Shown here: piece by piece, positions 5,616-51,100 of the stretch
How the letters are laid out: every line of letters starts with the position of its first letter
How positions within the stretch are numbered: position 1 is the first letter of the stretch
Assembly: GCA_002633005.1 (NCBI GenBank)
Contig: NMRA01000048.1
Location: forward strand, 1,046,483-1,102,407
Source: Phoronis australis
Lineage: Eukaryota; Animalia; Phoronida
DNA length: 55,925 nucleotides
Direction: 5' to 3'
Notes under the pieces: generated by a model
The model's database searches: none
Told to the model about the DNA's origin: nothing
What the model saw: only the letters and a program-made list of their open reading frames with translations
Made by a program: the position numbers and the translations under genes

Positions 5616-6287
5616 CTAAGTGCCTCCCAACTGTTCTAAGTCTAGGTGTACATAACTGTTCTTTTGTCTCTTCCATCTCCGGTATAAAACATAACCAACC
5701 ATCAGTGAAAGCAGCATAAGAAAGCAGCCAATCACAACACCAATAACTGCGGCTGTATCCAATGGCGTAGACTGGCACACTTTAGTAGGGTTAGTGGTGG
5801 TTGATTTGCTCCTTGCAACTGATGGTGACGTACCATTTGATGGTGTTGAGGATGACTGTGTACTCATGGTTGAATATGGCACTGTGTCATTCACGTCAGT
5901 CTGGTTTGCAGGGGAAGTTGAAGTTGTGACAATGGCGACAGTCTGGTTTGTAGATGAAGTTGGCGTTGTGGCAGTGACAACTGTCTGTTTTGCAGAAACA
6001 GATGGCACTGTGGCAGTCGTGGCTGACTGGTTCGCACGTGAATTTGATGTCGCGACAGTAGTAACTGTCTCATTCGTATTAGAAGTAGAAGACGGTGTTG
6101 TGGCGGTAACACTGACAGTAGAAGCTTGCAGAGCAGTCACGGATGTACTAGCACTGTTGTCATTGCTTATCATGGAATTATTCAGTGACAATGTACCAAC
6201 TGATGGTGGTGCCATCCATGTTGAAACAACACAGTTGAAAAGCAAAATGAGGACCACTTTAATCACACGCTCTTCAAGTCCAGCCAT
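5616..6287 (-). CDS. Mucin-like type I membrane glycoprotein (223 aa)
   Basis: Signal-like N-terminal hydrophobic stretch; Ser/Thr-rich ectodomain with NxS/T sequons (NNS, NET, NQS, NQT, NDT, NGT); TM AAVIGVVIGCFLMLLSLMVGYVLY; RRWKRQK stop-transfer; cytoplasmic YVHL. Confidence 0.8.
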   Translation of the reverse strand: MAGLEERVIKVVLILLFNCVVSTWMAPPSVGTLSLNNSMISNDNSASTSVTALQASTVSVTATTPSSTSNTNETVTTVATSNSRANQSATTATVPSVSAKQTVVTATTPTSSTNQTVAIVTTSTSPANQTDVNDTVPYSTMSTQSSSTPSNGTSPSVARSKSTTTNPTKVCQSTPLDTAAVIGVVIGCFLMLLSLMVGYVLYRRWKRQKNSYVHLDLEQLGGT

Positions 6288-7399
6288 TCTACCTGAAGCC
6301 TTTGAACAGCAAGGGACAGCTAAAATCCAGGTAAATTAATGTTCAAAACATGAACAATTAAAGCACAACTGTCCCCTCTTCCATCAATCCATGCAATGAA
6401 GACTGCTGGTGTCTGCTTACAAATGTGACTACAAGCAGCAATGACCCCAATTTTCTCTCCTTATGCACAAAATGATACCAGGTGACAGTTTACAATTGTT
6501 TAAAATATCAACAGGTGGTCACGGTCTAGTTGCGTCAACAACACCTGAGTATAGCCATGTATCAAAGGCAAACACAATTGTTTTGAAATATGCACACAAG
6601 GAAGTCATGAGGGGAAGTCTTAAAAAATGATAATGACCCTGACATATTACTGTGTCTACATGGTGTTTCACATCACTACTATAACTTTTCACTTATTTTG
6701 ACCCAGACATATTCCTGTGTCTACATGGTGTTTCACAACGCTACAACAACTTTTCACTTATTTTGACCCTGACATATTACTGTGTCTACATGGTATTTCA
6801 AATCGCTACTATAACTTATTTTGCACCGAGTTGCCAAATTTTTCTAATACTAAACTGACATTAGTGGCGAAAACACTTGTAGTTTTACAGACTAAAACGC
6901 TTGTGGAAACGCTAAGCATTTTAGTTACTATAGATAGACGAGCGCAAGCTGTCTACGATGGTTTAATTTTCACCAGCAGTTAGTTTCCTCACCATCTGAG
7001 TCACTTTTAAGCAAAAATATGTTACCTCTTCGCCATAAATTGATTGATGTGGCGATAAAACAAAGGCTTTGAAATAAGCAGGCTAGCGTGGGGTAAGTCA
7101 AACTTCCAACAAAAAGCCAGCAAATGTGCCCTAACAACAATTCACACCACTAGCATTTTTGCAGCAAGCGAAAATGCTCGTGTTTCAGCCAAACATGTGA
7201 ACCACAATAAATCTCCAGAACTGACAACCTAGACACAAATAATCAGAATAGTCACGTACAGGGGTTCCGCATTTTGAGAACCTGTTTTCTCCACAGAATT
7301 ACTGGGTTCAAATTGGGTTTTCAAAACGCTGACCCCTGAAAGTACCTTGCGGGAAATTCTAAGTGTTTTTTAAGACAGCAGTAGAATATAGTATGTTAC

Positions 7400-11981: not shown

Positions 11982-12101
11982 CTTTCTCTGAGGCAACACC
12001 TTAAGAACTTCAGCGCGATACCAGAAGTTGTCCTCTGTGTACTTAGCGACACATATCTGTCCCACGATAGGGTTAGAGATAAATTCTTGAGCAGACGTTT
12101 T
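11982..12101 (-). CDS. TDRD7: Tdrd7 exon: Tudor C core (GQICVAKYTEDNFWYRAEV); last exon found in the window
   Basis: tattttcag acceptor, AAG|gtaagt donor; canonical Tudor core. Confidence 0.9.
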
Positions 12102-15100
12102 CTGAAAATACAGCAAAGAAATATCGTAGAACAAACCATACAAAGTTGATAATCCAATCTATACCAAACATTGATTCAGAAAGTTCAAATAAGTGCTACA
12201 GTATCGTTTCAAGTTTGAATGCTGAATAAGGAAACGTGACAGAAACGAATGACTTTGATACAGACAGGTAGTTCTTCAGATGACGGTTGAGCACAGTTCC
12301 ATCAAGTAAGTTCTTCACAGGCTGTGCTCAGTATCTTCAAGCAAGGAATATTCCCTACACTCCATGACCACTCCTTCACGAAATGTAAGAGTTGAATGAC
12401 TACCAGGGATATTCTATCATTTCATTGATGCCAGAGTTACACCAGGAACAAAGTGAATACTCCTTTACCTCTATAACTTCAACACTCATTCCACTAAATA
12501 TGTCCAAAATGCATTTTTATTCTTAATTCCTCAACATCCTGGGAAACATTAAATCCCCATCAATGTGCCACATAATTGTTTCTAGAAAAGCATTTGTCTG
12601 TCCACCTGAAAATCGACCATTTGGTTTTAGCACCCTGCTAGAACAAAAGACCCACCGGAAAATGTCACAATTTGATTTTCACTTAATAACGCATCCTATT
12701 AGAAATGTGCCATGAGATTACCACACAAATCATCAAATGTAGCATACAATATATACCTGTTCACAGAACTATCCAATGAATCCTACTCCACTTACTTTGC
12801 TATAGTGTTGAGCAATGTCCTCCATAAATTCGTCCAATCGTTGCAGTCCTGGCCCCAGCACTTGGAAGAAGACGGTACCACGGGCCGACACATAACTGAC
12901 GTAACCTTCCACTGTACTGCCCACCTGGAGAGACAGTTATGAATTACTGAACTGGACAGCTGACGTCACTTGGGGGCACCGATTCAATAACTCGATTTGC
13001 TGTATATTAGTTCGAAAGACCTGATAGTTAGTTCATGCCTTCAACACTAGCTGGAGCTGTAGCCAGTTGACAATGGAAGGATCTACAGTTAGATGGCATG
13101 TCGACACACAAAGCAACAATAAACCTGCGTTCCACTGCAATAACAAAATTTTACATTATACCGTTTACCGCAGCAAAATTGGTCTCAATCTGCTCCTTAA
13201 TCAAATGCAAAATGATTTTTATTCTTGCAAAGAACTGACAGTTTATTATTCCTTGAGATTATGCTCAGCAAATAAAAGGACATGCTGTGACAAATCAACT
13301 CGCAGAGAATTAGTCTCCACCAATAACAAAGTGACAGCTCAGCAAATAAAAGGACATGCTGTGACAAATCAACTCGCAGAGAATTAGTCTCCACCAATAA
13401 CAAAGTGACAGCTCAGCAAATAAAAGGACATGCTGTGACAAATCAACTCGCAGAGAATTAGTCTCCACCAATAACAAAGTGACCAAGCCTAGGATTAGGT
13501 ACCTGGTAAGTGAAAAAATTGATTTTATAACAGTGTTCGCTTTAAGGTAAAATGTTCCTGTTTCAAAGCTTAAAGACCCTGCGGTTAAAAATTTAGTTAA
13601 CACCTAACCTTCAGACTACAGGTTGTACAGACAGTAGGACCTTCTGGCCACAGAATCTTTGATCTGAAGATCTAGATCAGTACCCATATTGTTACCTACA
13701 GGGGGTAGTGTCGGTGCCAGTTCCTCATCTGCAATCATAGTGCCCAGGGCTTCGTTGATGTTGACGTCAGTTTCTCCACAGGTGTCAAAGAAGTTGACAG
13801 TGCACTTTTCACCCCTGAAAAGACATCAAATGATGAAGTTAACCAATATCGATTTGTTCTGCAAATACACACAGATAGAATGATTTCTGAGCTTAACTAA
13901 AATCATTGCATGTTACCTTTTTCCTACCCTAGTATATAAAATGCATCGTTTGCACAAACTCCGTCTCCCCCGCTACACTACAGACCTTCGTTGTGCCCGT
14001 TTCGGCACCACCTTGGTCCCAGGTATTGCACGGCCCCCTATTTGGATTCGAGGTGTTCCTATTTTTTTCTCGCGGGCCGTTTTTTTGCAGACGCGGAGGG
14101 AGGATGGCCAGTTTCGTACTGGCCTTGGTAACGTCAGTCGGTTGGCTCAAAGGCCTGGGTGACGTCACTTCGTCGGCTTAATTTCATTCCCTCCGGCTTC
14201 TGTCGCGTATATAATTCATTGAGCCTGTCACCGGGCCACCAAAATTAATGATGCCTCATTAAAGAATTTTTACTCTTCCTTGAGTAAACTAAATTATTTA
14301 CCCGGGCGTTGGAAAATTGGCGTTCTTCAGTTATTCTGCTGCTAAAATTGCGATGCACTCTTTGGGTGCCATCGCGTCACCTATCGGGCCAATTTTCATG
14401 TTCTTCAATCAACTGTGTAGGTTGCGGACATGTCATAAGAATCGGAAGTGGTTTCAATTCGTTACAAGTTTTTACTATTTCAATACAATAAAAAAACAAT
14501 TTAAGAAAATACTCTCGCGAGATATCGCAAAGTTTTGGGAAATCGCGCGTACATGTGCATGTCACGAGATTGCACTGTTTTCAAAACGACGGCAGGATTT
14601 TCCTTTGTTACAGAAAGCGGAGAATTACGAAAAATAACGTTTACTAGATTTTGTTTACTTCTATGAACGGCTGTAACGGGCACTGTGAATGTCGATTCAT
14701 TCCCAGATTCTGCATGCACCTCTGCAGGTTGTTAGCTCTAAGTTTCACAACCAGGTGACAAGCTGAGCACCTGGGTTGTGTGAAATTTTGGTGTCTAACG
14801 GAGCTCTACACATGGCTACCTAGCTGTATGTTGTCGACAGTCTTCATACAGCTAGCCGACTTTCTATATCAGTAGGCTATGTACACTTATGATGCAACTT
14901 TTGTAAATACATTCAGGGGTGGATCTAGGATTTTGAGTTGGGGGGGCACGGCACTAATAGAGTATTAGCCAGAATTTTGCCCTTTAGACATTCGCACCCC
15001 CCGAACTGCCAAATGGAAGCTGGGCGGATTTTATTGGGGGGGGGGGGGGGGNCTTAGTTTTCACTTTAAACTGAAGAATATCTGATTACCGTACTTTGTG

Positions 15101-18100
15101 TTACGGCAGGGTCAAATGTACTGGAAAGAAAATTGTACTGCCTAGGGGAAGAATCCCACAGCCGCAAACCTTAATTGCCTACTAAAATTTGACGGGTGAC
15201 AGAAATTCTGCTTGAAGCTTTGAACACGGTCTCTTCAAGAAGTATTCCTGTCTCTCAGTGTGATGAACACTCGATCGGTTCACTCTTAGGTGTAGCTATT
15301 TCCCCTCGGCGTTTCTCACTAGCTGCTATCCGTGCGAAAGCACGGGTAACGACTAGTAAACATTTAAAAATAATAAGTAGCATATGAAGCCTACCAAAAC
15401 ATGACCTCATCAAGATGTCCTACCTTTCCAATAAGTAGCATATGAAGCCTACCAAAACATGACCTCATCAAGATGTCCTACCTTTCCAATAAGTAGCATA
15501 TGAAGCCTACCAAAGAATGACCTCATCAAGATATCCTACCTTTCCAATAAGTAGCATATGAAGCCTACCAAAACATGACCTCATCAAGATGTCCTACCTT
15601 TCCAATAAGTAGCATATGAAGCCTACCAAAGCATGATCTCATCAAGATGTCCTACCTTTCCAGCACTTCAGCTACATAAGTCTTGCCAAGAGCCATTTCA
15701 AACAGTTTCTCAGTCACCTGATCATTGTCTTCAAACTGCTCCAGCCCAGCTAGGCAGCACGAGATCGCCTGAGGGGAAGGTGGAAAATAAATAATGTAAA
15801 GTCGGCTATGTTGAGTACAGTGTCCTAACACATGCACCTTTGGTCACCAGTAAAGGGTAAAATCTCACCAATTTAGGACACAATGAGGATGACGAGTGAA
15901 ATCTTACTTCATCATTTATTCCGTGCAACATGTGCAGTACCAAATTAAATGTATTTTCAAGTTTTGTACAACAACTACTGCCAGGCAAAGTTGAAAAGGC
16001 AATATAGAGTCACAACAGAGTTAAAGAACAATTTTGGCAAATATTTCTGAGCGAAATTGGTGACATTTTACTGTTCTCCATTGTGTAATAATGTTAAGTA
16101 CAGCCAAACCTTTCCAGAAATTTCCTAAAACATTTATCAAAACCACTATGTTGCCAATCAACCTTTAAATAGAACTGCTGACTTAGAACTAGTAGAGTGA
16201 AATGTTATAAGTGAGTGATTGTTATATACCAGCCGTACGTTGTACCTTAGTTTACAAAATAGAGTAGATTGGTTTCTTTGGATTTTCATAGTGCTTTTGC
16301 TGTCAAGATTCCACACAATCATACATATCATATTGCCTTGAATACGGATTTGTTCAAGATGCTCATTGCAAACTCCACAGTTGCTAATGAACTTATGTGT
16401 CGCTCCACTCTAGTTATAAAAACCTCGATAGAGATTCAGTTATTAAGAAACATGACAATCTTAATTGCCTCTCTACTGCCAATATAAACTTTGATGGACT
16501 AACAGTGGTGATCACACAAAAGCTACAGTACAAGACAAAAGTACGCAGACAAAACACAGTTTTCCGGTCATGACAGCTTATTCTGCTAACAGCAAAAATT
16601 ACCAGTAGTAACTATTAGGGTGGCAAAAATTTAATTATAGAAAAGCTTAGACATCTGATTAACTCTGTTAATTCCCTTTCACTCTTGGTTATGAGGGGAG
16701 ACTATCATTGTTGGTTATGAGGGGAGACTATCATAGTTGGTTATGAGGGTAGACTATCATAGTTGGTTATGAGGGGAGACTATCATTGTTGGTTATGAGG
16801 GGAGACTATCATAGTTGGTTATGAGGGGAGACTATCATAGTTGGTTATGAGGGGAGACTATCATAGTTGGTTATGAGGGGAGACTATCACTGTTGGTTAC
16901 AAGGGTATACTATTCTGACAATGAACATCTTCCATCTCGCCGTCATGATGGGGGAAATCCAGGCAATTTTGTCTGAAAGCATTAGGCTTGTACGGTACTT
17001 GAGGGTCTACCCACCTGATAAGGCAATTGGTTAAACTGAGGCTCCAGCGCCCTCAATTGACTATCTGAAAGTACCTCACTATCACCGTGGTCTAGGAACA
17101 AGCAGTCAACCTGCAATTATAGATAATGCTTGTCATTTCATAGTGTCTATTTCTACACCATGTTGCTCAAAATACAACCCAAAAACATTGACCCTGGGCA
17201 ACAGTGCATTTTGACTTCAGCAACCTTCAAACGCAAACTAGTTACTTGGAATGCCATGCTAGAAAACCTTTGCAACATATTGTCAAAAAAGAAACCAAAG
17301 AATCATTCGATGTTTGACCTCAGGACACACCAGACTTTAAATTCAAAACTGGATCAGTTTCATTAGTCATGCATTACAGGGTAAAGTCATACATGTTCAA
17401 TTACTGTAGGAACTAATTTAAAATATAAAGTGCCCAGCAAATTAAAATCTTTGAAACACTAAGGAGTTAGCATTTTGTGTTATATAAGAGTGCGACAATT
17501 AATTAAATTGAGAAGCGGAAGTGACTGATTTTTGTATCAATACGTGAAGGCCCATGTCAATTAGATTCTTAGTTCCGATTTTCACCCTTAAATGTCGTAC
17601 ACAGTTACGGCTTCTTGGTATCTTTTAAGAGCATTACTCAGATATTGAACAAATGAACACCTCAGGGTCATTCATTAGTTGGAATTTTATATTAAACAAT
17701 GTTCCACAGCAGGGACATCTTGAGTGCTCAACGGGCAAAGTTGTCACAGCAAAATGTCGACATTCTCATTTTCCATTTGACAGTTTTGAAACTTTTTTGT
17801 GCTTAAGTTGCTAAAATTGGTACAATGTTAAGTTAACTACTTGATATGTTTTGAGAAAAAGTGAATTTCACAAACAAGAATCAAATAGAAAATGATCCCC
17901 TCTAAAGAAGATAAAATCAAATTCCTAATTATCTCACCTCTAGTGTTACAGATAAGATACATGTTAGTCTCCCTACCTACCTGCTCCCCCTCCACTGCTT
18001 GTACTTGCACCCTGAACCAGCTGTCCTCACTACAGGCAGCGTAGAGTCCATTTTCTTTCACAGACAGCTGTGGGGGGTTTGGCTTCTTGGAATAGTAGTT

Positions 18101-21100
18101 GGCCATAGCCTCCTCAAGAGCTTCTAACTTGTCCTGTAACACAGTCATGAACATGTGTCTTGCATGTCAATTTCAAAAAACATGACAAAGGACTCTCCTC
18201 TAATAACGAATTGGGTGACATTATGTTGAAGCGAAAGTTTTTGAGAACAGTCTCCTGAGTAGTAATAAATTGAATTCTGTTTTCATTTTCTAGACTGAAG
18301 GCGATATCTCCAATTTTGCCTATATTTGAGTAGCAAAATACTAATTTTAACACATTTTCATTGCTAGCTAGGCTTTCTTCAAGGTTTCAGCCACAACTAG
18401 AGACTAAATACTTTGATTAATAAACTGTTAAATTAAGAAAATTACTCTGTCTTGGGTCAACAGTAGTTGCTTGACAATACATAACATCTACATCGCAAAG
18501 CAATGACAGTGATGAACACTCTGGTACAAAGCAATGACAGTGATGAACACTCTGGTACAAAGCAATGACAGTGATGAACACTCTGGTACAAAGCAATGAC
18601 AGTGATGAACACTCTGGTACAAAGCAATGACAGTGATGAACACTCTGGTACAAAGCTCATTCTTGAATGAAATAGAACAATACACTGACACTCACCGAGT
18701 ATTCACTACCAACAAGTCTAAAGACTAGATAATTTGTATTTCGTATGTACGACACGTAAACGTCCCAGAAAACCTCTTGCGGAAAGGCGAGCGTTTCTGA
18801 AAGGGCGTGGTAGGCTTAAACATGGTTCAATGACTAGAACTAAATAAACAAACAACAACAACAAAACTAACAACTACAATACTAAATCTTTATCCAGCAT
18901 CAACTTTACAGAGTATTTTATGAGTGAACAATCTAGTAGGTTACAGAGGCAATAAACCCACGCCTTCTACAAAAACAATTTGATTTAGGCTACATATGAC
19001 TGGTTATGAAATCGAGCTTATCTTGCTCCTTAGTCACATTAGTTTTCTAGGTTTAAGAAGTGACACGTCTTTATTTCTTCAGGCTATGCACATTGCCATG
19101 GTGGGCTAGTTTCAGTCTCCAAGACAATATGATATTGTAACCAATTTCAATTCAAACAAAGGATAAGAACGTCACAATGTTGCTTTGGAAGAAAAATTAT
19201 TGCAGTGAAGAAAGTTACATATAACACAAAAAGTTGTAATACACCTTATTCATACAGTCATGAAATTACAAAGAGCCTCCTTTAAGGTTAAAAACAATGC
19301 ATTCTGCAGTTAATCACAGTGCAAAGTTGATTTTTTTTCACATGATCACAGTGCAAAGCGTGATTTTTTCGCAAACCTCATTATCTTAATATTCATGTCT
19401 CAAATGCATTTCTATTTTAAAACAGAACAGAGGCCCATTTTTAAAATGGCGACTTCGTGAATAAGGTCTGTTACATTTAGTATACAGTTTAAAATATTCA
19501 ACAAAAGTCTTGATAAAATTATTGTAACTTACACAGCGACGTCACATGTGTGTTCACATACCTGGGTAGCCCTGTGTAGGTGCTAAAGAGGTGACGCCAC
19601 CCCCCTCTGCATGTCTGGCTAGGCCGCGCTTCACCAAGTAATCGTTCAGTGACAGGGTGGGCTTCTTGGAGTCGAATACAGTACAAACTAATGTTTTGGC
19701 TGAGGAAAGAAAGGCACAGGACTGTTGCGTAATTTTTGTTACAAATTTAATATTTCAACCTCTCACAAAAATGTTGCATTTAAATTTTAAAGCCTAAATG
19801 CAAGCCAAACATTGTCCTACAATGAGAAATCTGCAGTATATTAAGTTCTGAATAAATTGAGTTTAAAAATGAACTGGCACAAATCACAGGCCCCCCCACC
19901 AAGAAAAGGAAAAGATAACTTATTCATAGTGCAAGAAAAGCAGTTTGTAATTGTAATAAGCTAAAACCACTTTGTATTAGACTTAAGTCTCCAGGAAGAG
20001 CAACCCATTAACACAGAACTTCAGTAAACAGAAAATGGAAAAAATTTGCCCCAATAATAAGACACTGTCACATGTATATTTAAAGTGCTTTGTAAAGAAG
20101 TTGTCCACTCTGATACAAAACAAGTCACTGCACTGTATTCTAAAATGATCATGCCATAAAAACAACATCTCACCCAAGACGTTCTCCACACTGATTGTCA
20201 GCTCTTTGTTATTGGTGCACTTTTTGAATTGGGAAATGGCTTCAGAGCTCCAATGAGCGCCATCTACAGGCCGTACATTATGTAACTGACAGCGGAAGGC
20301 CTGGTGAGGATGACGACTAATCCGAGATGAAATCTCACACACTTCCCCTGCCGACCGGACCTCTGAGTTGCCAAAATCTACATAGTAGATCTCGACCTCG
20401 GTCTGTTGAAACAGAAATTCAACACGCACGACTGAGTCAGCTACGAAGTTTCGAGTACAATTACTTTACCAGCACTGATTAAAAAGCCCGCGTTGATGTT
20501 TATAAATCACTAAATGTGCTTATCATACACTGTTTTTCACAAATTTCTATCTGATGAGTCTGAAACGACTTGGTGAGCAGTCATTGATCAATTGGAAAAA
20601 CAGCGAGCTGCTCTAATTTATTGCAGACCAGCAGCATGTCACACAACCGACTGCTCTAATTTATTGCAGACCAGCAGCAGGCCACACAACCGACTGCTCT
20701 AATTTATTGCAGACCAACAGCATGTCACACAACCGACTGCTCTAATTTATTGCAGACCAGCAGCAGGCCACACAACCGACTGCTCTAATTTATTGCAGAC
20801 CAGCAGCAGGCCACACAACCGACTCAAGCGCCGACTCAACTACAGGCTCTCTACAATACCCTTTAAAAGTTGCTGTTGTCATGACACATCCAATGTCTTT
20901 TTTCAATTTCATCAATGTCATAGTAACAATGAAGCGTTGCTTTATTGCAAGAGCAAGAATTTAAAATACGCCTCAGCACGTGGCAATAATTTGCTTCTTA
21001 TCCTGGATTTCTGACCCAAGAGACGACGACAGTGGGGAGCGACCTACTGATTTCTAGCAGACCGTTGCTTGTCTGGGCCAAGTCGACTAGACGACCAGTC

Positions 21101-24100
21101 CCAGACTCATACCCAACCAGTCAGACATAAATCTGTGACCGGTTTTGTACAAACTGACATTGACAGCATAACATAGGGTAAAATCTTACTAATTTTTGAC
21201 AAAAAATAACCAAATAATCATTTTTCATTTTTCAAAGGCTTCTAGCATTGTAATTTTTCAAAATATTGTCTGCAGTTTGCTATGGTGCAGAATTTGCCTC
21301 TGGAAAAGCATTTATTTGCTGCTATTTCTATTGTGGAAATAAATGAAAAATATTCTATTTCACTTGTCCGCCATATTGTGTCCTAAATTGGTGAGAACTT
21401 TATGAACAAAATAACTCTGTGAACAAATTAACTCTATGAACAAAATAACTCTATGAACAAAATAACTTTATGAACATCAAAACTGTAATTATTTCAACAA
21501 AGATTTGAAGACATTCTATATTAAGAACCAAATGTTATATTGGTCTCCTGGAAACAAAGTCACAATAATTTCAAGACTAAAGAGACTAATGATACTTGCC
21601 TCTTTGACGAAATAACTAAGAAATTACAACTTGTTAGTGCCATAATTCTATTTTTACTTAATTCTCTACTAACATCCATTGTAACGCCAAAGCAGACGAG
21701 CAGACAGTGTGACCTAGTGGGTAACTTTCCGCTTACTTTAGTCCCAACAGGGCAAACTGCTACCCTTCAGTTATGTCTCTAACTCCTCAGCTCCATTTTA
21801 TTTATATTCCAATCAGGCATAAAAACGGTTCCAGGTGATCAATGCAATGGCCCACCTGGGTGGCCTGCGCATGTCTGCTACAACGTGTACCAGATTGCCT
21901 GCAGTTATTTTTCTACAAGCAGAAGACCTACTTCATCTTACCTGGCCCTGAATATTCTTACGAACACTATGTATCTGTGCCCTGTACCAACCCTTGTCTT
22001 CACTGAACTGGGCCACACAGAACATCCCAGGAATGGGTTCCTTTACAATGGAAGGACGTGACCGACCCTGTCATGATACAAGAGCTGACGTTATCAACGC
22101 AACGATAAATATGACGCAAGCAAAGTATCTGTCATATCGTAAAACACACTTGGCATGCTAGGCAAAACATAAGAACTATTCACACAGCATTTTGACAAGG
22201 TGCAGTACACTAACTTAGACATCATGTCACCCATTACTAATGTATGGCAAATTGTGCCCAACCATGTTGTTTGCGTCTGAATGTCAAGTTGTATCAAAGA
22301 GAATTAGATATTTGAATGGACTTATCAGTCAATTCGATGACTAGCTGCATAACCAACAGACTTTAGCACAAACTGAAATTCCACGTCAAAACAAACCCGC
22401 AACATTCACACACAGGTGACTTAAATTACCAGACAAGTGTTATTTTTGACATTAACTTGCTATTTTAAGAGAAATCTGCACTTTATTACATACAGAGTCC
22501 ACACTATCTATTTGTAGCTCTGTAGACAGAGGTCTTGGGAGCCAAAAATGGCATCATATCCGAAATGCAAATTAATGGGGTTCTGTGATGTACAATCAGC
22601 TTCAAATTTTGGTAAAGATCTGTAACATATTTTTTCAGTCAATTTCAGAAAACCGTTAAAACAACAAAACACTCAAACAGTTGGAGAATTTAATAAAACT
22701 AAGTGTGACCACAACCTTCATCAGGCATTGCAGGCCAAATAATGCTTGTGTAATCACACATGCACTCTGTGCTGTTTACATTGTATATTGCATAGGATTC
22801 CATTTGCTGTTTTTGAAATGCTGTGAACACATGATACAATTAAACATTTAGTGATAACGGACATCACCACTGCATAATCTTAAAGTCCTCTAACATTTTG
22901 CTGGTGTTTGATTATATTATGGAGACTGCTTACCCCATAATCCTTTTCTACTTCCTGCATAATTTCATTGATGGAAGAGTCAGCCATTTGCACATAAAAG
23001 TGCAATGGATCTATGGGATGTGAGATGAACCCTGTCAGCTTGGTGCTGCAAACAGAAACAATGACTTTCAAAATAACATTATTATTCACAATCATCAGCA
23101 TGTTCACAAAAATACATTTAAGAGAAGAGGACAAGACTTGAAGAAGACATACTTTTGCGACCACTAAAAGTCGATGCTTAAAAATGAAAGGGAAAAGTTT
23201 GAATTCTTGCATCTTAAATCAATGAGAACCAATCAAATGTAAATGATGATTACTTCAGACATGATCACAACACCGCAAGATTGGCCAAGAAAATTTAAAT
23301 TATTTATCTGCGCTGAGAAGTGATCCCAAAGTTCGTTTACAGTAAAACAACAACTATCTAGTTGAGATATTAGGCTACATATAACGGCTTGTTTACTTCA
23401 CTTTCAAGAGAACTGGGGCTATGAAAGTTTGAACATTTTGAACGCAATTTAAAGTTCTTGTAACTTGCATTATGTCCCTCAAAATCGCTTGACTTACTGA
23501 ACCTCTATGCACTAGGAATCATGTGTCAGCAAAAATAAAAATTTCTGCTTAAGAGATATGAATTTTAAGAACCTTACTAGGAGGTGGACTCGAACTGAGA
23601 ACCACACTTCCAGTGCAGGGAATTTTACTGTCTGCTACTGGCCAGCAAGTTAAGTCGTTTTTATACAAGGAACAATCAACATGGCGCCAGTTGTCACGCC
23701 ATGACTTGTTCCACTTCAGTCGCATTTACACAACAGTAGATCACAAGGCAAACAAGCACGAATCATTTACACGAAGACTGTCTGAGCAAATAATAGCGAA
23801 TATCTAAACCATGTGGAGTGCCAGCAGATCACCCGTATGTACAGTATTGAGGAAGTGCAACAGAGATGATCGCTTCTACCTGCCCAATATGTAATTAAAC
23901 GTGTAGTTGACACTGGAGTAAATGATCGAGTGCAACTTGTTTTACCTCTCAAACCGGTCTCAAAAATGGCCGTCACAGTGTCAACTCCCTCCGTGCCAAG
24001 ACTCGCCATTTAAGACCTTTAGATTTTTATTTTTACCCGTTTTGTTGAACATAATTTTGCAACGAACCTTTGTAGAATAAAGATTTGAGCACTCAAATGT

Positions 24101-27100
24101 TCAGAATGGCTTATTAGGTTCAATATTATTGATTGTTAATGTTATATTAATTGTGAAATTACTGTTTACAGCCAACTGTTAAGTCATACATCCCATGAGC
24201 GGCGTTTCGCCTTTTTCACACGGGATTTGGACAATTATATATACAATCAGCAATTCACCAGTATGTGTTAACTAGATATAGTGCTGTGGTTTGATTCCCA
24301 TTTGGGGTTCCTGATTTTTCTGCGTTTATTTGATATATTTCATTACGGGCCAACCTCAGTGTCTATTTATATTAATTGCTACCAGCCGAACTCCTTCCAC
24401 AACCATAGTCACACTTTGTGTAATTTTGCTCCCACATTCAAGTAAAGTGTTTTCCATTTGTTATTCAACGCTAGCCTCACAACATTGTACACAATGTTCG
24501 TTAATAACATACCTATGTGTCTTTCATTTCTTAGTTCACACTTAAAATTGTATGCAATCAATCCTACATGAAAACACAACAATAAAAACGAGTTAAGCGC
24601 CACGCCATTTAATGCAAAAATATTGTCAAATACACAAAGACAACACATCCCTCAGCTAACTGAATTTTAAAAACACATTAATAAACCTGCTAAAACTTAT
24701 GGCATAACAATCTTAGACTTAGTAAATTAGCTAGTACTTGCTAACAACCTTAACCTGTTTACCAACATGTCACTTACAGAAAACCCTTCAAGATAACAAA
24801 ATGTAACTAACCCACTGGCATTGCAATAATGTTGAAGGGCATTTAATTACAATGATATGCAAACTGTGTCAGTAGATAAAATAATAGCATAGATAGAACA
24901 GAACAGAATGCCTCCCAAAAGGAAGACAGTACAGTCAGTTTTGAAAACAAACTAGACATTGAAATTCGATGAAGTTCTGATGCAAAAAACAGCGACTAAA
25001 TATACATTTACTTTTTGCTACAACCAATTCTGGCTAAATCTCCACAACTTGTTTTGTAAGTCCATCCACAGACAAGTAGCAGCAAAGCGTAGTAACGTCA
25101 CATCAAACCCTATTTCACTGCGACAAAAAGTTTGACTAAACTGCTAAATAATACAGGCAAGACGTTGTCCCAGTTTGGCAATGCCTCACAGAATTCTCGC
25201 TAATTCTGCTCAATTTATTCTGTACGGACAACACAATAACGGCAAAGTCTAAATAAAGAATGACCAAAATTTACTATGAAGGACTCAAGAAGGGCAACTT
25301 GTAATGAAAATCAGACGAGATACACAAAGAGATATCTCAAAACAGCAGGGCTGTAATTCTGCTAAACCAAACAAATAAAAATGGTTGCCGTTGAACCCGA
25401 GTCTGATATTACCAAAAACATTAGGCATTGAGGTATTGACAAGTCACATGCTGCGCAAAATTTTACCAAAATTGAACAAAAATATCCGTTGCATTTTATA
25501 AACAAACCAACAGGCAACAAAACCAGGTATTAGTCAGAGAGTAATGCTCCTGATGTCAAATAACAACCATGACGACAAGCACTGAGTAGATAGCATTCAA
25601 TAGGAAGAGGGGGGAGGGGCAACAGCACATTGTTTGAGGATTGGAGGAGGGGTTTGAAATGAGTGGCAACTGAGGAGAGGACTTGTTTTGCAAAAAACAG
25701 GGATACCATTATCTTGTGTTCCCTCGTGACTGCACCAGTGGCGGCAGAGCAGTTCAGCAATGAAACCATGACCAGTAATCGCAGTACAACAGACATATCC
25801 AGCTATGACGACCATCAGCAGAGCAAGCCCAGGTCACAGAAGCCGCATACTATCGACTTTCATGAACACTTTAATCCTTCAGGTTAAAACCAACCATATG
25901 ACTCAGTCATTGCCACATTGTTTGCTAAGTGGCGTCTGTACAACCATTAGACAACAAGCCCTCTCGAATGTTCTTGTACAGCTGTTGCACTCCTTGAGCA
26001 TTCAACCTCCTCGACCCCTTGCTCACGACACCATCTTCGAAGACTGACATCTTGCTCAGCTTTACCAGTACAACGTTATCCAGTTTCACTTTAGACATCA
26101 CTTTCTCCACTAACTTGTTGAACATATAAGTGACCTGATTAAAGTTCAATATCTGGGACACAATGATGCGGCAATTGGGGGCTAAGTTGCGGATATGATC
26201 AATCACGTCAAATGTGTCGTGCACAATGTCCTCGTGATGTGCGTTGTGACGCAACAAATCTACATGACCCAGATGTAGATACGCGATGTCCGGTTGACTT
26301 TTGACAAGGCGGTGAAGGTTCTTATGGAGGGAGGCCAAACGTTTGTTGCCCAAATCAATGATTTGCACGGAATCATCAAGTGAGAAGTGTTTCATCTTTA
26401 TGGTGTGTTCAGCTATCTGATAGAAATAACCTGCTTGTCCAATAAGTAGGACTTGTTTATGACTGAAAGATAGAAAGGTCCTGTGACCAGAATGCATTTA
26501 AAGAAGTAGCAAAGAAAGAAGGTAACTGGGAATAGATTTATGAAACAGTAATATGACAAATGTAAAATAAGTTATTGAGGAAACTAAGTCACCTAGTTTA
26601 TATGCTCAACTTCTAAAGTAACGCATGCTAATTCATAATTTATTTCAAGCAAAAATAATATTGCAAAAATTGTCATGTTCCATTTTTAAAGGCTGATTAT
26701 CTTGCTGCAAATATTGGAAGCATTACCAAGTGCTGTCACATGACATGTACATAATGCAAATATTGGAAGCATTACCAAGTGCTGTCACATGACATCTACA
26801 TAATGCAAAGTAAGCTGTGAATAGACTAACATTTTCTTAATCCACAATTTTGTGGAAAAACTTGACAAAATAAAGTTTAACCTGTCTTCCATATTGTGTG
26901 CTAATTACGTGAAGAATTATCACGTGTTAAATATTTCCAGACAACAATTGAAAAACAGATTCATGACATAGGTAAGAGATAATGGAAAAAACGATGGTCT
27001 AGCATTTCCAGCATACCTCATCGACGTTCCACTAACAATAATGTAATGTGAATGACACAGTTACTCTGTGTCCTGTCATAAGTTAGGTTGCTTTACAAGC

Positions 27101-30100: not shown

Positions 30101-33100
30101 TAGCTGTTGGTTCAACATCACTTCAAGAATGTTAACAAACAAAACACAACACAAACATTGAAAAACAGATAATGTGAGGCTACAGGTGAAACATAACCTA
30201 CCCAACAGGTGGCAGCACCGGGTCTTCAATTTTTATATTTTCCTGGGCAGAATAAAAAAGCAGAATTGGTTAAAATCATAATCCAGCAGCAAAAACAGAC
30301 AGTCCACTAAATTTCATTTCCACGTCAAATATCATGCTGACTCTAAGTTCAGCATTTATTTGAGATTTCCAGGAAACAAATGACAGAAAAGCATATGACT
30401 GTCAAGCAAGGAATGCCTTGTAGGAAACTATAGTCCAATTACATAAAAACTTGCCAAACCATTTTGAAAACAATCAACAAACAAGGAATACCAGGTCAAA
30501 ACCTGAACATCCCACAAGGATGCTGGACATTCCAGATTACATTTATGTGCATCAAATTTTATCAACATTTGTGAAGTTATTTGAGAATTAATCAGAAGAC
30601 AACCAAAAACATGAATTGGTGGACAAACTGCCAGGCAGCTGGCCATACACCCCATGAGCATTTTTGTGGATGCATGAACAATGAGCTGGGGCAGCAAATT
30701 TAATAATATGAAACCAACAAAATGCTTTACCATGCTCTTTATAACTTGTACAGTTCTGGCATGATCTCCACCCGCACGTGACACATCGACTCGCAGTGAC
30801 TGAACTGGATATAGAATACGTCGGTCTGTGTTGGGCACTCTGAAATTAAACAAAGCCTCTAAAATCATGGCTCCAAGTTGATATGTAGACTAAGTTGGAC
30901 ACCCTGCAATTAAACAAAGCCTCTAACTTTATGTCCACAAATTGGTATGTGACTATTTTGATGTTAAAACAACACAATGAACACGTATTATACTTTGTGA
31001 CTGTGAAGACCTTCAATTTAAATATTGGCTAACTGGCGAGTACTTAAATAAGCATTAAACCTGTGAATTCCATAAAAAATCCAATTTTTTATTTAGGCCA
31101 CTTACCCTCAAGTATTGTGTTGTTCCTTACTCAGTTTAGAAGTGAACTGAGCATTGGCAACAACTGACAGTTCCTTATTTGTTCAGACAAAGCTCATGAA
31201 AATCCAGCTCACATCATGACAACATGAGACCAATATCATAATCATGGTAAACGGCCTAAATCAAAAATTCTTTTCCTACAGAAAGCATGGGTTTAATGCT
31301 ATTTTAATGTTCAGGTACTGGTTAGACCAAAACAAGCTGACCCAAGCAATGTAATGCCATCTTAATGTTCAGGTACTGGTTAGAACAAAACAAGCTGACC
31401 CAAGCACTGTAATTAGCCATCACGACTCACTTCAGCAGCTAAGTGAAACTACTCACTAAGTCTATTAATATTTATTTAAATAATTAAAAACGATCATCTG
31501 GTTATATCGTACCTGGTCCACATAAGAATTGAACAAATTTCAAATTGCACAGGCTCAAAACAGCACATGTAAATATAGAGGGTCCAGGACGTTGTAAATA
31601 TAGAGGGTCCAGGTCGTTGTAAATATAGAGGGTCCAGGACGATGTAAATATAGAGGGTCCAGGACGTTGTAAATATAGAGGGTCCAGAACGTTGTAAATA
31701 TAGAGGGTCCAGGAAGTTGTAAATATAGAGGGTCCAGGACGTTGTAAATATAGAGGGTCCAGGATATTGACCAAGGGCTACAACACCGGACAAATTCTGG
31801 GGGTGCATAACAGCAAAGTAAAACAAACCCACTACTGAAGCGTGGATATCAAGTCCTAGCCTTATTACGACCTGACCATGACACATATTAACTATTGAAC
31901 AAGTGCTAATGAAACGCTCTGTAACCATAATTTCGCAAGTTTGAATCCCAAAAGCAAGTTGAAAGAGATATTTTCCTACACTTCTATGCGGACCACTTCT
32001 GGCCATTCCTCTATAAGTCTGGCTAAATGTGACGGAGGTTTTTCGCTATATTTTTCTTCGTACTCCACGATTAGCCTCGACTCCCACAGGCCGTTGGTTC
32101 GCCGAGACAAAATCTGAAACAGAATTGACAAAAGTGCAAAAAACATAAAACTAGATTCCAAAGATTGAAAACATCACCACGATGGTCTTACCTTGGTCGA
32201 AGAATCACCTAAAGCCTAACTTCAATGCAATTTTGTTACTTAAAATAAAAGGGCTAACCAGAGTCACAGCAAAGTATTAGAGAAAAATAATCACTCAAAT
32301 GTAGGCCTGTCAACTGACAAGTGAAGTCTCCTTTTCTTGACATATGGCATCACCGCGAGATTCCAGCACCAACAACAAAAGGCCTATAACAGCTGTAGAC
32401 AAGAGCAAGCCAACAAGCCTAACATTTTGTTAATTTATGGCACCGGTGGGCTCAGAACGTACTGCAGGAACCAAATTTACAGGTGTTATCGTTCAAGGCT
32501 TTAAGAGCACAATAAACAGAAAATCATCTATGAGAGTTCTAGATCAAGTGCGCAAGTTACATTACATGACAAGATCAATATTCCTCCTTCGTGCTTTTGT
32601 TGCGTAAGATTTTTAAATTGACTTATAATTTACAGTCCTCTGACAATTTTTCACAAAATTTGAAAGTAGATTTTGCTATCATTTGTAACGTAGTTTACAT
32701 GCTTTTTTAATTCACCCCAGATGACCAATGCATTCTTCAAGAAACAACAAAGTTAACATAAATGATTGTCTCTGAAAAAGCACCATATTTATGTAAAAAG
32801 TCTCATAATGCTCGCCTGAGTAAGTAATCCTCTAATTCCAGACCTTAAAAGTGACTTCTGGCAGTTTTTCAAATCCAGCACAGGTCAACACGGATTAAAC
32901 ACAATGAAACCGCAATAAAATAAGAGTCGGTCTCGAGGACATGCGGTTATCTCCAGACAGAATGTAATCCCTTGTTTGAGATTTCAAATTGTCAACGTAC
33001 CTAACCGACACTGTTATCGGACAAGCGTTGATGGCAGGTAAGAATACTTTATTGTGATGTTGAAACAGCATTACAAACAGAAAATACAATGAATCAGTAT

Positions 33101-45100: not shown

Positions 45101-48100
45101 TACAAGCACATGGCAGTTGGGCCATTTGACTTTGGGTGCAGAGACTGTAATGAGAGGGTACAGCGAGAGGTTAAGAAACAATGCAGTATATATGAGCCAA
45201 GCTATGACAGGCTATCGAGAACCATCAGCATACTGTGAACGCACAATAAAGAACACCTTCAATGGTCAGACCAAAAAGACTGATGAATGCTCATACCAGT
45301 CTCGATTTACGAGCAGACTTAAAATTGAGCTTTTGGTCCGAGTTGGTTACGGTTCAATTCTCAACTTGGCGCTGAAGACTGATACATAAATGCAGCATAG
45401 CACTTCAATCTTTGGAAAAAGTAATCTGCTCTCATTGACAATTTCGAGGCAACACGTAGTTCACTTAAAATGCATGGCGTTATCTATGCCTTTTCATGAG
45501 CTTCTTGCAACTACGTAACACAGTCTAGCATCCTGGGAACATGTTAGTGGGTACTTCTGTGCCATTGATACACAGATGAAGTGTGTCAAGACCAGTGAAA
45601 AGACTCAGCAATCACTTCATTATGTGAACGTATCAAATTGTAATTGTTGAGAGTAATTCTTCACATGATTTAGCACACAGTATGGCCTTTGAAAAACGGA
45701 TTACAAAGAAAACAACAATTTTGGCAATTATTTTTGAGAGATATTAATGAACACTTACCGTAATCATTTTATTAACCAGGGCTAAACAAAGACATTCAGA
45801 TTTTTTGCATTAGTTTTAGTATAAACACGAATGATTGGTCCTGCTGGACTTGACTGGTCCTAACTAATAAGGCTTGCAATATTACGGCAATGGCACAATT
45901 GGTGTACTTTTGCAGCTTGCCTTCAGTTTTCATTTTCACTGTCAGAAAATATGGAACACAGTCTGGGTAGAATTCGAAAACGCTAGGACCTCGCTAAAAA
46001 GCAAGACTTTGCAAGATTACGCGAGATATTGCCGTGTATTTTAAATGAGAACAAGTGAACTTTGCTAGATATTAGCAAGGTCCTAGCGCAGGTCCTAGCG
46101 TTACTGAACTCTACCCTGGGCTACTTGTAAACATGGCTATATTAAGAAACCTGGCATCATCAACACCACCAAGAGATGTAACTGAAGGTAATGTATGACA
46201 ATGTCCACAAGTCTCTACATTTAGCCAAATATGTACAAAACCATAGAATTAAACTTGGCAAAAGTATGCATTTTCTGAAAATAAAATTCCATACAATTTG
46301 ATTTTTGACTTAAAACCAATCTGTCATAAATTAGGTCACGTGAGCATGCCTTTTTTAAAGCAAAATTTAGCAAAAAAAAGAAAGCTGCCTTCACATCAAA
46401 ACTCAAGGGTAAATTACATAAAATTACTTGTGATATCTGGGAAATGCACATCTAAAACACTTGGCAGCAAAAAATTAATAAAATCTAATTTTATGTGGGA
46501 AAAGGTGAAAGTTTGGTCTCAAGAACTTTTTCGTTATTTCAAACCACAGTCTCTCCATTGACCTTTGGGATAGACATGTAATTTCAACATCTAGTTGGAC
46601 AACAGCAACATTATACTTTGAGGTCCCCCACAATACAGGTTGCAAACATAGTTTACACAAGCCCCTGGAGGTGTAGTTAGTTTTCTGTAGCAGACCAACG
46701 GGACCCATAAAATAGCATGAAAGCCCATAAACTGAGTTACAGTAATTCTTTGCTTATTTTCCACAAACAATTGCCAATAATTGGAAATTTAACCAAATGC
46801 CATTTAAGGCAACTACACAGTACAAACTAATCCAGCTAAAGATTCACTTTTTCTTGATTCTTATTTTCGATGAGCAATTTGACAAAATAAAATTTCTATT
46901 ATACGCCATATTGAGTGGTGAATAGATGAAGACTTACAGTACTCAGGTATGCAGCATAATTGCAGACTTGCCACTGACTGTTACAAACATGATATAGAAA
47001 CTTACCTCTCTCACCCTCTCTTTTACTCCCAATTCATCAAAAGAGTGACTGCCATCTAAAGGGACAAATAAGATCCATCTGCACCATAATAATCAATAAA
47101 TAAAATAGTGTTGATGCAATCAAAAGCTTTGTTGACCCAAAAAACTATCTTACGAAAACTTTATTAACCACCAGGCTCTCACGAGCTAGGATAAACCAAA
47201 GGTTCACTCTTTGACTTGCAAAAGAACCAGGGCTGTGCTCTGTAGACGCAAGGATAATGAAAAAACACAAGATTAACGCAAGCCTTCCTCAGACACTGCC
47301 ATGCATTAAGAGAGCATGTGACCACAATAGCCGTTCTTGTCTGGCTCTACCAAATGCAGCCCAAGGTTGCTCATGCACACAGATTACATGTTCATTTTAT
47401 ACGTCTAACAAATAATGCTGACGAGATCACCCAGAACTGCACTTGTATCTTCGGTATGACCCAATAGAGGGTGCTAGGGTGGCTTAGTAATAATTACTTT
47501 GCATAACAGCCAACAGCATTTGATTCCCAATGTTTCAGATTACAATGAGGATACTGATTAAATGATTCAGCTATTATTGTCAGAGAATGCAAGCCCGAGC
47601 CCCCCCCAAGGGGTTTTTATGCAACCAGACCAAAGACCACAATTTGTTTTGATAATCCGTTTTAATTACCTTTTGGCCTCACAACTTTCAAGCAGACATA
47701 AATCTGACTTGGGCAGCACAGGGCAAACAATAAAATGGCCCACAGATGGCACTAGGGCAGCTCAGTCAGCACAGTGTAGACATGCAGAACTCCACAGCAA
47801 TTCGAACAAGTCATATATATCGCTTGATGAAGTTAGTTTACCCCAGTAACAACATTCTCAAGTTATGACCTTACTTTAGGAAGGGGATATCACTGGGAAC
47901 TGTGATCTACGACACATAAAGAAAAAGCTACAAAGTGACAATGCATTTACCAATACAAAAATTATAACCAAAGATTTACTCTGTCATGAAATAACTGTTT
48001 ATTCCATTTACAATGTTTTGTCTGGTTGTCTGCACTGCTGACTCTGCCGACAGCTAAAAGTTTCAGCAGGGTGTCACATGCTCATTCAAAAAAATATTCG

Positions 48101-51100
48101 TTAGTTTCCGTACAACGTCTTCAGGTACACAAATAAATATAAGCTTGTGCAACCGATTTCCCACGCAACACCATATTTTAGAACAAACTGAACAATTTAA
48201 GAGATCTCATCAACTTTGAGACTCAGCAGATGGCCATCGTTGTCATGGCAATCTTCTCTATCCCATCTCCCATTCATTCGAAATATAACCTCCAGAGTCT
48301 GTACATGCCAAAAATCCATGAAAGCTTAGTCCATTCTCTGCTTGGCTATAATTTCTCAGTTGCGCTGGAACTGAAATCAAACTTTTCACCAAGATTAGGT
48401 GCGAGTCAACGTAGAACTATTAGGTCACTCAACCAATCTTGAGCATATAAGTAAAGCAGAGATTTAAGATATATGCGTTTGCATGGTTTTATACTTAAGA
48501 AAAACATTTCTAGTGCCTGTAAGAAAAGACGAGTCAGATTTGGTGGGAGATTGGTTGCACAAGCTTGCATTGTTTTAAGTAGTAATGTGCACATTATGTT
48601 ATTCAAAAAAAAATAAGAACAATGTATTGAACGAGCTTGGGTGTTGTGCGCAGATTTGTACAGTTGTTTCTACTCATTTCAAGCACTGAATTGTGACCAC
48701 TGCTCACCTTCAAAATCATTATTGTTCTTTTCCATTGCACGATGCTTTCCTTTCTTTGGTTCTGAAAGTAAAACAACCAATTATGCCGTGTAAATGTGCA
48801 CCTTCAGTTACCACTGGTGTGACTGCTGGACATCAAGTTGGAGGACTTCATCCACACGTTATGGGATGTTTACCAGTTGAACCACAATGCACTAGAAAAA
48901 CGTAAAGTTTAGTGTACATAACATTTTAAAATAGGCTCATGAGTTTGACCAAACGTGAGTTTTGCACACATACGCATACACTTGAATTACAGACATGGAT
49001 AAAGCTTCACATGCAGGTATATGTGCCTCAACACGTGTCTACACAAACAATAGAACTGTTGCAACATAATTTCTTATCATCATGTGTATTCATGCAAGAC
49101 ATTATTGACATTGAGCTAGAAGTCATTTGTCCAATAAATGATGAGTGGAGTTGCCAGAGTAACTACAGTACATGCCAAAAATAATAGGACAGAAATCTGC
49201 TTCACACAACACAAAACGTGACTTCACATGATCAACTGGTGCCAAAACTTAGGCAATTGGCGCGGCAAAACGTTGCAACAGAGTACATTGAAAAAGGGCA
49301 ATAGCACAGAGCTAGAGCTAAACATTTGTACTCACCAGGTCGAATACCGAGGGACATACAAGCTGTCTGGGCGGCACTATGCTCTGCATCGGATTTGGTG
49401 TTGCAGAAATCTAGTGTAAGTAGTGCTTAGTTGTTAGTTAGTGATGTTTAACGACAGTTTGATAGTGGTTATGGGAAAACAATAAAGGGATTGGGCATCC
49501 CTTTCCCACGAACATTTTCTGAACAGAATAAAATACCAAACAGGTTAAGTACAAAGAATTTCAATAGGAAATACAGAGAATTATACACCCAACTGAATTA
49601 GTGAAAGACCACTGTTCACCACTAACTGCAATATTCAAATAATGAAATAGCACAGCACTCCTGTTCATTTTCGCAATTTTACATCAAAACCACATTGACA
49701 TTTCGTCATTCCAGTATAGTCATACTGTAACACAATGCCTTGCAATGCTGATACCAAAATGTGACAAGCCGAGTAGAGTGCAATACATTATTCTTTCCTA
49801 GTACATTTCACCACAGAACTGTATAGCCAGCTAACTATGTCAAAACTAGGCCAATCATGCAATGCATTTTCCTACCTATGCGAAAAAGGAGAGCTGTATT
49901 CAGCTCATGGCTATTAAATAGTTCTTGGATAAAGTTTCCTTGGAATTTCTTGACAAGCCAACGATTTTGAATAACATGGGAACTAATTTACACCAGTCAT
50001 TATATAAAAAAGAAATAAAAAAATGAGAAGCGCTTTTTTGACAACTCTCAACTGTATCAACTTCAAAATAGGGCAGCCTCAAAATGGCTTACCAGTAGAT
50101 CCAAAAACACGTTCTCGAGCAGTTACGATGCTAACAAAACCCTCCCTCGTCATCGTAGTCTCGTAAACCGGCTTCTCATTGAACTTTTGCAAAGCATTGT
50201 GAAGCAGGGCCTTATACGATAGAGCTGAAGTGGAACAATAGAGAAGCACGTGAACTGAGGTGGGCCCACCTGGCACGATATATACCCCCCGCCTCCACAG
50301 CAAAGCATACAGAGGGCAGTCAAGCTGAGTCTTGATAGACGAATTAACATGACGAAATTGCAATGCTGATGCTGAATTTTAAAACTGGCTAATTTAAATA
50401 TCAATTCTTGCATACATTACAATGCATTATTGGTTTGTGAACTCAGTTTTTAATAAAGCTGATTGGAAAAGAACCAACTGTTTCATCACTTTTAATGAAG
50501 AATCTATGACAGCCAATTACATATTCCTGATTAGTTTCCCATTGATAACATTATCCTTTGACTCTCGTCTGACTAACTTAACCAGTTTTAAGGCTTCCAA
50601 TGAATTACATGAAAATGAGTTATGAGGCAAATTTAAGTTGTTAGGACAGCTAATGGTATGAAACCAGCACTCACAATACAAACAAAAATTATCATAAAAT
50701 AATTGCAGTAACAGATGTGCGCAGGGTGCTCATGTGGGCCCATTGCACTGAGCACCTGGAACCACTTTTGTGCTTTATTAACATATAGTTAAAACCGAGT
50801 TGAGGAGGTAGAGACCTGACACAAGAACCTAGCAGTGTGCCCTATAGGGACTCAAACCCTTGAGTAAAGAAAGCAGCCACCTATTCCACTAGGACACTCT
50901 GCCTTCTCTTGACAACAATTATTAGAATACTGAATCCATTCAAGTTAGAAAACAACTTAGTCAAAAAAGAGGGACTGTGATAGCAGCAGTGCACAGCATA
51001 CAGTACTCTGAGAAAAAAGCTATGACTTTTAAGTTGATGCTCACTTCAGAAATCCTAGTATAGTTTCTGTAATACCATAACTCACTAAGACACTGCATTG

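Follow-up and report, generated by a model that had tools for sequence, protein, structure and literature searches.

The 55,925-nucleotide stretch of Phoronis australis contig NMRA01000048.1 analysed here (positions 1,046,483 to 1,102,407 of the forward strand; in the following, the window) contains a minus-strand open reading frame (ORF) of 190 codons from stop to stop (25925-26497), which is predicted to encode an SGNH hydrolase fold without catalytic residues. The ORF sits in an intron of a gene that we assign to TDRD7, on the same strand, with the LOTUS exons before it and the first Tudor exon after it. We consider it probable that it serves as a regulated alternative last exon, giving TDRD7 a Tudor-less form that is Oskar-like by convergence. 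An earlier note on this DNA had observed the ORF correctly, but had missed its setting in TDRD7 as a likely alternative last exon. Statements credited to papers below hold for the available excerpts of those papers.

All motifs that had been quoted from the ORF, namely IGQA, LHLGHVDLL, SRRLN, IVHD, YMFNK, and NAQGVQ, were found in its sequence. Its match to Pfam Lipase_GDSL_2 has an expectation value (E) of 0.002 and stays under the curated cut-off. The SGNH fold, which had been proposed from sequence motifs, was recovered by structure prediction: an AlphaFold2 model of the domain, built from a 10-sequence alignment with a predicted local distance difference test score (pLDDT) of 62, aligned with the fungal CE3 acetyl esterase 5B5S at a Z-score of 15.4 and a root-mean-square deviation of 2.7 Å over 164 residues, and further structural matches included PAF-AH Ib (Z about 14) and others. 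Foldseek matched the domain model to the SGNH fold with an E of 1e-5. Folding of the single sequence was poor (pLDDT 50), yet it indicated the same SGNH fold.

Aligned with P0003, a relative with intact blocks, block I changes from GDS to GQA, block III from HVGTNN to HLGHVD, and block V from DGVH to GSRR. The hydrolase signature Ser / Gly / Asn / Asp-x-x-His accordingly reads Ala / Asn / Val / Gly-x-x-Arg, the Asn being of uncertain register. The loss of the nucleophile Ser, the oxyanion Asn, and the His, for which the domain had been called a pseudo-enzyme, is thereby confirmed in this alignment. Block V falls in a part of the model with low confidence (residues 133-151, pLDDT <50), so its register is set by the sequence alone.

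The host gene was identified as TDRD7 from its LOTUS domains, which are closest to TDRD7, and from its several C-terminal Tudor domains. The LOTUS 1 exon matched Pfam OST-HTH with an E of 3.5e-8, and its best match in the PDB was human TDRD7 (3rco, E 3.2e-5), compared with E values of 1.5 for TDRD5 and 1.2 for Oskar. Likewise, the core exon of LOTUS 2 had TDRD7 as its best PDB match (2ly1, E 1.4e-5), and Pfam Tudor was found above cut-off in four ORF pieces (Table 1). A shared-word search with the two LOTUS exons for TDRD7 orthologues yielded none among 17 candidates, and the exon with the start codon was not found within the window.

Upstream of the SGNH ORF, the span from 54936 to 30202 holds ten exons bounded by AG..GT, which share a single frame and encode, in order, LOTUS 1, a basic linker, a double-stranded RNA binding domain (dsRBD)-like domain, LOTUS 2, and a short linker. 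Together with the SGNH exon they give 547 residues with no internal stop, ending at 25925. The last shared exon ends in phase 2, the phase in which the SGNH exon (26462/26480) and the first Tudor exon (23045) also start. Over its first 12 codons the ORF coincides with a pyrimidine tract and with two AG acceptors in the same frame, which would place the exon start at 26480 or 26462; because of this tract and these acceptors, the coding part most likely begins there and not at the ATG at 26497. The acceptor at 26462 lies two residues ahead of the first strand of the domain, that at 26480 another 18 bases earlier.

Transcription of the SGNH exon is sample-dependent and runs into a long downstream extension. 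Three raw-read runs (X1, X2, and X3; 18-19 in 100 reads used from each) and a contig set (X4), all carrying the same species label, were mapped to 21700-27100. The Tudor exons were covered in one mate orientation only and were joined by the canonical junction 22066/22933 in 5 (X1), 5 (X2), and 3 (X3) reads, and these spliced exons of a single orientation therefore calibrated the strand. Between 24596 and 26586, reads came from the TDRD7 strand only. In X1 and X2, cover extended over the SGNH exon and about 1.3 kb beyond its stop, to about 24600-24800, near the poly(A) hexamers at 24847 and 24613. X3 had zero cover over the SGNH exon though its Tudor exon was expressed (Tudor exon depth 3.7, 6.8, and 5.6 in X1, X2, and X3, respectively). 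Estimated from depth, the SGNH region held about 34 reads in X1, about 21 in X2, and 0 in X3, where about 25 would be expected at the pooled rate. The intron bins 22243-22785, 23148-23690, and 26949-27100 were empty in all runs, so the signal does not reflect intron retention in general. In the acceptor bin, depth goes down from 7.0 to 1.9 in X1 and from 3.1 to 0.1 in X2. Among the joints listed for the mapped span at a threshold of 3 reads, none involves the SGNH exon, and so none leads from it to the Tudor exons.

The GC content at third codon positions is 0.54 in the ORF vs 0.40 in the intron. Among the variants listed, both inside the ORF are synonymous (P about 0.05-0.08), and so are both in the Tudor exons. 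The earlier suggestion that the ORF is under selection is weakly supported by its intact frame, its expression, and the synonymous nature of 2 of 2 listed coding variants.

In the mechanism that we propose, splicing of donor 30202 to acceptor 23045 would give the ordinary TDRD7, LOTUS-dsRBD-LOTUS-Tudor x3. Splicing of the same donor to 26462/26480, with cleavage and polyadenylation near 24600-24850, would give a short form of about 580 residues, LOTUS-dsRBD-LOTUS-SGNH, from which the Tudor domains are absent. In TDRD7, Vasa is bound and stimulated by the first LOTUS by way of its C-terminal extension (PMC5458760), a segment that, judged by eye, exon 53947-54067 likely encodes here; this exon alone had no Pfam or PDB match. 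The short form would retain this LOTUS and would be without the Tudor domains, the readers of methylated Piwi proteins, Piwi binding being Tudor-mediated (PMC12147562). It would gain a mildly basic, non-catalytic domain (isoelectric point 9.2, 22 Lys and Arg, 17 Asp and Glu) as an RNA- or protein-binding surface, a role also proposed for the OSK domain (PMC8662646), and may, in certain tissues or at certain stages, serve as a scaffold for granules in the manner of Oskar. A preprint cautions that the domains of Oskar act less modularly in vivo (10.1101/2025.05.02.651258). As to its history, the SGNH ORF, for which a retroelement of animals is the most likely source, would have entered the intron, become exonised, lost catalysis, and converged on the Oskar architecture independently.

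The earlier note had left the origin of the domain between bacterial transfer and retroelement esterases. The evidence leans to an animal retroelement esterase rather than to bacterial transfer, and a retroelement origin is favoured. A HMMER search of 1.84 billion representatives returned three matches, two of which, P0002 and P0003, are genuine relatives, both stand-alone SGNH proteins with about 30% identity to the query. The remaining match, P0001, is a coiled-coil repeat protein and was rejected as spurious. P0003 matched 4C1B, the zebrafish ORF1 esterase of a long interspersed nuclear element (LINE), with an E of 1e-15. In this LINE esterase, H191 and S228 have been called transposon-specific (PMC3905857), and equivalents of both are present in the query, as His62 and Ser101 of the 177-residue domain. 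Ser at the S228-equivalent site occurs in 3 of 47 metagenome loci; 21 of these loci were examined, of which 20 look bacterial and one (L016) resembles the animal-type domain, without element context. The nearest ESM Atlas clusters are mostly eukaryotic, being commonest in molluscs, cnidarians, and annelids, and scans of viral and prokaryote genomes gave no relative of the SGNH domain.

The SGNH ORF is probably not a young element, since it has a single copy in the window and no reverse transcriptase, endonuclease, or recombinase beside it in the 35 ORFs that were scanned out of 51 others of at least 45 residues at 23516-30232, a scan that short decayed pieces could escape. This bears out the earlier remark that no reverse transcriptase or endonuclease accompanies the ORF.

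Several observations weigh against an alternative last exon of TDRD7 with this history. Independent support covers the LOTUS cores and the Tudor exons, the other upstream exons being predictions, and the phase agreement of the SGNH and Tudor exons has a chance of 1 in 3. The junction 30202 to 26462 was not observed in the span of 21700-27100 to which the reads were mapped, nor among the loose-end rows listed. The depth of the SGNH form is low, about 2-3, with a dip to 0.5-0.8 at 25863-26043. Same-strand reads are present at 26587-26948 in all three runs (X1 depth 1.2-1.4) and overlap a repeat matched by X4 contigs, and the ORF has its own ATG at 26497. As regards origin, the His equivalent to H191 is found in all 47 metagenome loci, which are mostly bacterial and were chosen by a His-containing pattern, and in a profile without P0003, the fungal CE3 enzyme 5B5S (E 4.8e-5) and 4C1B (E 2.3e-4) came out on a par. 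The phylogeny suggested earlier took the form of a 16-row tree with OSK and 4C1B left out, in which 1 of 13 inner branches was supported and the grouping with sequences resembling transposable elements was not rejected by the approximately unbiased test (p-AU 0.20). No orthologue of the SGNH exon was found by shared-word searches (0 of 2276 longer and 0 of 55 similar-length candidates) or by HMMER on representatives.

Part of these data would also suit a separate, intronless gene nested on the same strand, i.e., a domesticated esterase of 190 residues that starts at the ATG at 26497, has its own promoter, and is not joined to LOTUS. The ATG stands at the very start of the ORF, X1 has the same-strand reads at 26587-26948, SGNH expression is independent of the Tudor exons, a BTB gene is nested in another intron of TDRD7, and the LOTUS-SGNH junction was not seen. 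However, the upstream reads are shared by X3, where SGNH cover is zero, and overlap the repeat matched by X4 contigs; the X2 depth is 0.09 in the ATG bin; what follows the ATG for 12 codons resembles a pyrimidine tract with two in-frame acceptors; and the ATG has a T at -3. We regard such a gene as rather unlikely. An internal cassette exon, which would insert SGNH between LOTUS 2 and Tudor 1 of full-length TDRD7, could draw on the phase-2 GT dinucleotides near the exon end (25979, 25955, 25952) and on the dip in depth at 25863-26043, but the candidate donors are weak, no such joint was listed, and cover runs 1.3 kb past the stop; this arrangement seems hardly credible to us.

The ORF might also be a recent or decaying fragment of a retroelement ORF1, passively transcribed or mis-spliced and with no selected function. 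Its nearest relatives resemble transposable elements, Tc1 and THAP remnants lie in the same intron, and no orthologue was found in the searches made, all of which would fit a fragment of this kind. Active retroelement esterases, however, keep their triad (PMC3905857), whereas the ORF has lost four catalytic positions, and despite an identity of about 30% to its nearest relatives, it has no stop in 178 codons. Its reads are single-stranded with few variants, in contrast to the two-strand, variant-rich repeats at 24050-24400, and the single copy in the window with no reverse transcriptase, endonuclease, or recombinase near it in the 35 ORFs scanned also speaks against such a fragment, which we hold to be improbable. 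The features in Table 1 are labelled according to the preferred reading, the alternative last exon of TDRD7.

Table 1. Coordinates of the SGNH exon, its likely 3' untranslated region (UTR), and the exons of TDRD7 in the window
Feature	Position	Strand	Evidence or remark
SGNH pseudo-esterase coding exon ending in stop, likely alternative last exon	25925..26462	-	acceptor 26462, second in-frame 26480
Likely 3' UTR of SGNH form, end approximate	24600..25924	-	continuous same-strand RNA signal in X1 and X2, absent from X3; poly(A) hexamers
Poly(A) hexamers in likely SGNH 3' UTR	25875, 25219, 24847, 24613	-	
TDRD7 exon, LOTUS 1 core; start-codon exon outside model, probably beyond window	54831..54936	-	Pfam, PDB
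Predicted exon, LOTUS 1 end, likely C-terminal extension helix	53947..54067	-	donor uncertain by few codons
Predicted linker exon, basic, low complexity	52459..52668	-	
Predicted linker exon	51443..51572	-	
Predicted exon, dsRBD-like first half (label by eye)	50093..50224	-	no Pfam or PDB match alone
Predicted exon, dsRBD-like second half (label by eye)	49336..49410	-	no Pfam match
Predicted exon, LOTUS 2 start	47006..47055	-	
TDRD7 exon, LOTUS 2 core	31980..32113	-	PDB 2ly1
Predicted exon, LOTUS 2 end and linker	30731..30839	-	
Predicted last shared exon	30202..30242	-	phase-2 donor fits SGNH exon and first Tudor exon
First Tudor-region exon, canonical TDRD7 form	22934..23045	-	RNA cover and splice joint in X1, X2, X3
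Second Tudor exon	21942..22067	-	Pfam Tudor E 4.2e-6; joint 22066/22933 in 5, 5, 3 reads
Region with further TDRD7 Tudor exons	11982..20465	-	Pfam Tudor E 6.2e-7, 1.1e-6, 2.6e-6; exon candidates

Within the TDRD7 locus, the two exons at 49336-50224 (-) between the LOTUS domains read like a dsRBD; neither half matched Pfam, and a PDB scan of the first half was likewise empty. The 15-kb TDRD7 intron 47006-32113 contains, in opposite orientation, a BTB/BACK gene of two exons (44180-45238, +; Pfam BTB E 2.7e-15). The SGNH intron holds a THAP-domain remnant at 29520-29867 (-; E 0.03), with phase-2 acceptors present, and a Tc1-type transposase remnant at about 27950-28280 (+; E 0.078). The short repeats at 24050-24400 and 21820-21910 are transcribed from both strands and have many variant letters, and an opposite-strand joint, 24152/24284, was found there in all three runs; they are probably a hairpin-forming non-autonomous element. 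Many minisatellites with a period of 13-83 bases are spread over the TDRD7 introns at 15372-53857. Downstream of TDRD7, an intact ORF of 239 codons (5616-6335, -) encodes a Ser/Thr-rich, mucin-like single-pass membrane protein, and just upstream of the LOTUS 1 exon, an ORF of 126 codons and of no known family lies on the opposite strand (55248-55628, +).

The earlier note had described the substitutions in the domain as OSK-like. The blocks of Drosophila OSK read GDD / SGL / NIGSVD / LFWN (PMC10792757), so the GxVD that the note had given was right and the change from Asn to Val is common to OSK and the query. At the other positions the likeness does not hold: in place of the nucleophile, OSK has Asp and the query Ala, His is replaced by Phe in OSK and by Arg here, and the block II Gly is retained in OSK and apparently Asn here. 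Neither the domain as a whole nor any of 5 sub-regions matched Pfam OSK (PF17182, cut-off 27 bits) up to an E of 10 in a search whose HMMER filters drop weak matches, and the PDB chains of OSK matched neither the query nor its parts. OSK structures and 4C1B were absent among the matches listed in four fold searches; the best 50 fold matches of the domain model (pLDDT 62) are other SGNH and alpha/beta folds. With GDSL families excluded, an ESM Atlas search was free of OSK clusters, 0.88 being its best score. Weak matches to Pfam OSK came from P0002 and P0003 (E 0.014 and 0.006), and a still weaker one (E 0.14) from one of six bacterial-type domains. The predicted SGNH form of TDRD7 would be like Oskar in design, but none of the profile searches, and no match listed in the fold searches, identifies its domain as OSK.

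Shared descent with Oskar would require an ancestral tdrd7 with an alternative SGNH exon, oskar being a duplicated locus that kept the SGNH form only. The architecture is the same, oskar carries a tdrd7-like LOTUS domain (PMC3084197), the Asn-to-Val change in block III is shared, and P0002 and P0003 show their weak matches to the OSK model. Fungal CE3 enzymes, to which the eukaryotic OSK matches outside Oskar were confined in PMC7250577, where a bacterial origin was inferred, also provide the top structure here. Yet the query itself has no OSK match, its other catalytic positions changed differently, and His, not Asn, stands before the block III Gly. Furthermore, no orthologue was present among the proteins of other animals that were searched, and the excerpts of a bivalve TDRD7 study report that no transcript isoforms were found (PMC8277629). 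We consider shared descent highly improbable; convergence on the design of Oskar is likelier.

The fusion of LOTUS and SGNH has been called unique to arthropod Oskar (PMC2848206), and TDRD7 has been said to lack an SGNH domain, oskar being proposed to stem from a tdrd7 paralogue fused with a hydrolase gene (PMC3084197). In the literature covered, from which subscription journals were largely missing, neither a TDRD7 gene with an SGNH exon nor a non-insect protein that combines LOTUS and SGNH turned up. Oskar is the standard example of a gene that arose by transfer from bacteria (PMC7250577), an origin repeated in PMC13389597. If our reading is true, the combination of LOTUS and a dead SGNH domain evolved twice or predates insects, and the TDRD7 locus shows the intermediate step needed by the fusion model, with both products from one locus. 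Animal retroelement esterases would then be a donor worth adding to OSK trees, and the short form would be a candidate for a germ-granule scaffold, of which this animal group has no known example. One may go further and suppose that LOTUS with a dead SGNH is older than insects or was repeatedly reached by one route, tdrd7 capturing a retroelement esterase as its alternative last exon; on this view, oskar would go back to a duplicate of such a splice form that lacks Tudor, OSK would derive from a retrotransposon esterase and not from a bacterium, and the host animal would build its germ granules with an Oskar-like form of its own. We see this as a long shot.

Compared with known systems, the LOTUS and Tudor exons of the host gene match the layout of bivalve TDRD7/Tapas, 2 LOTUS and 3 Tudor domains (PMC8277629), one Tudor junction being present in RNA. 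This layout and the ESM Atlas neighbours suggest a host among the invertebrates outside the insects. The SGNH domain resembles the retroelement SGNH esterases (ZfL2-1 ORF1 4C1B; CR1/L2, RTEX, Penelope; and Ngaro, whose retrotransposons also bear an SGNH ORF, PMC9210276) in fold, in length, in the link through P0003, and in the equivalents of H191 and S228. It differs from them in that it has no triad, no coiled-coil ORF1 ahead, and no reverse transcriptase, endonuclease, or recombinase beside it in the ORFs scanned, with an identity of about 30% to its nearest relatives. Fungal CE3 5B5S and PAF-AH Ib, the top structural matches, are active, stand-alone enzymes with 11-16% identity to the query. 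By the exon model, LOTUS and SGNH lie in one open frame and the SGNH exon is transcribed, but the junction between them was not observed in the mapped span. With insect Oskar (OSK structure PDB 5A4A), the predicted short form would share an N-terminal, TDRD7-type LOTUS and a C-terminal, triad-less SGNH domain without Tudor, as well as Val at the oxyanion Asn (GxVD). Oskar, however, is a gene of its own, whereas here we likely see a splice form of tdrd7 with the Tudor exons downstream at the locus, and the predicted form of the host has two LOTUS domains and a dsRBD-like domain and differs in its residues at the sites of the nucleophile, of block II, and of the His.

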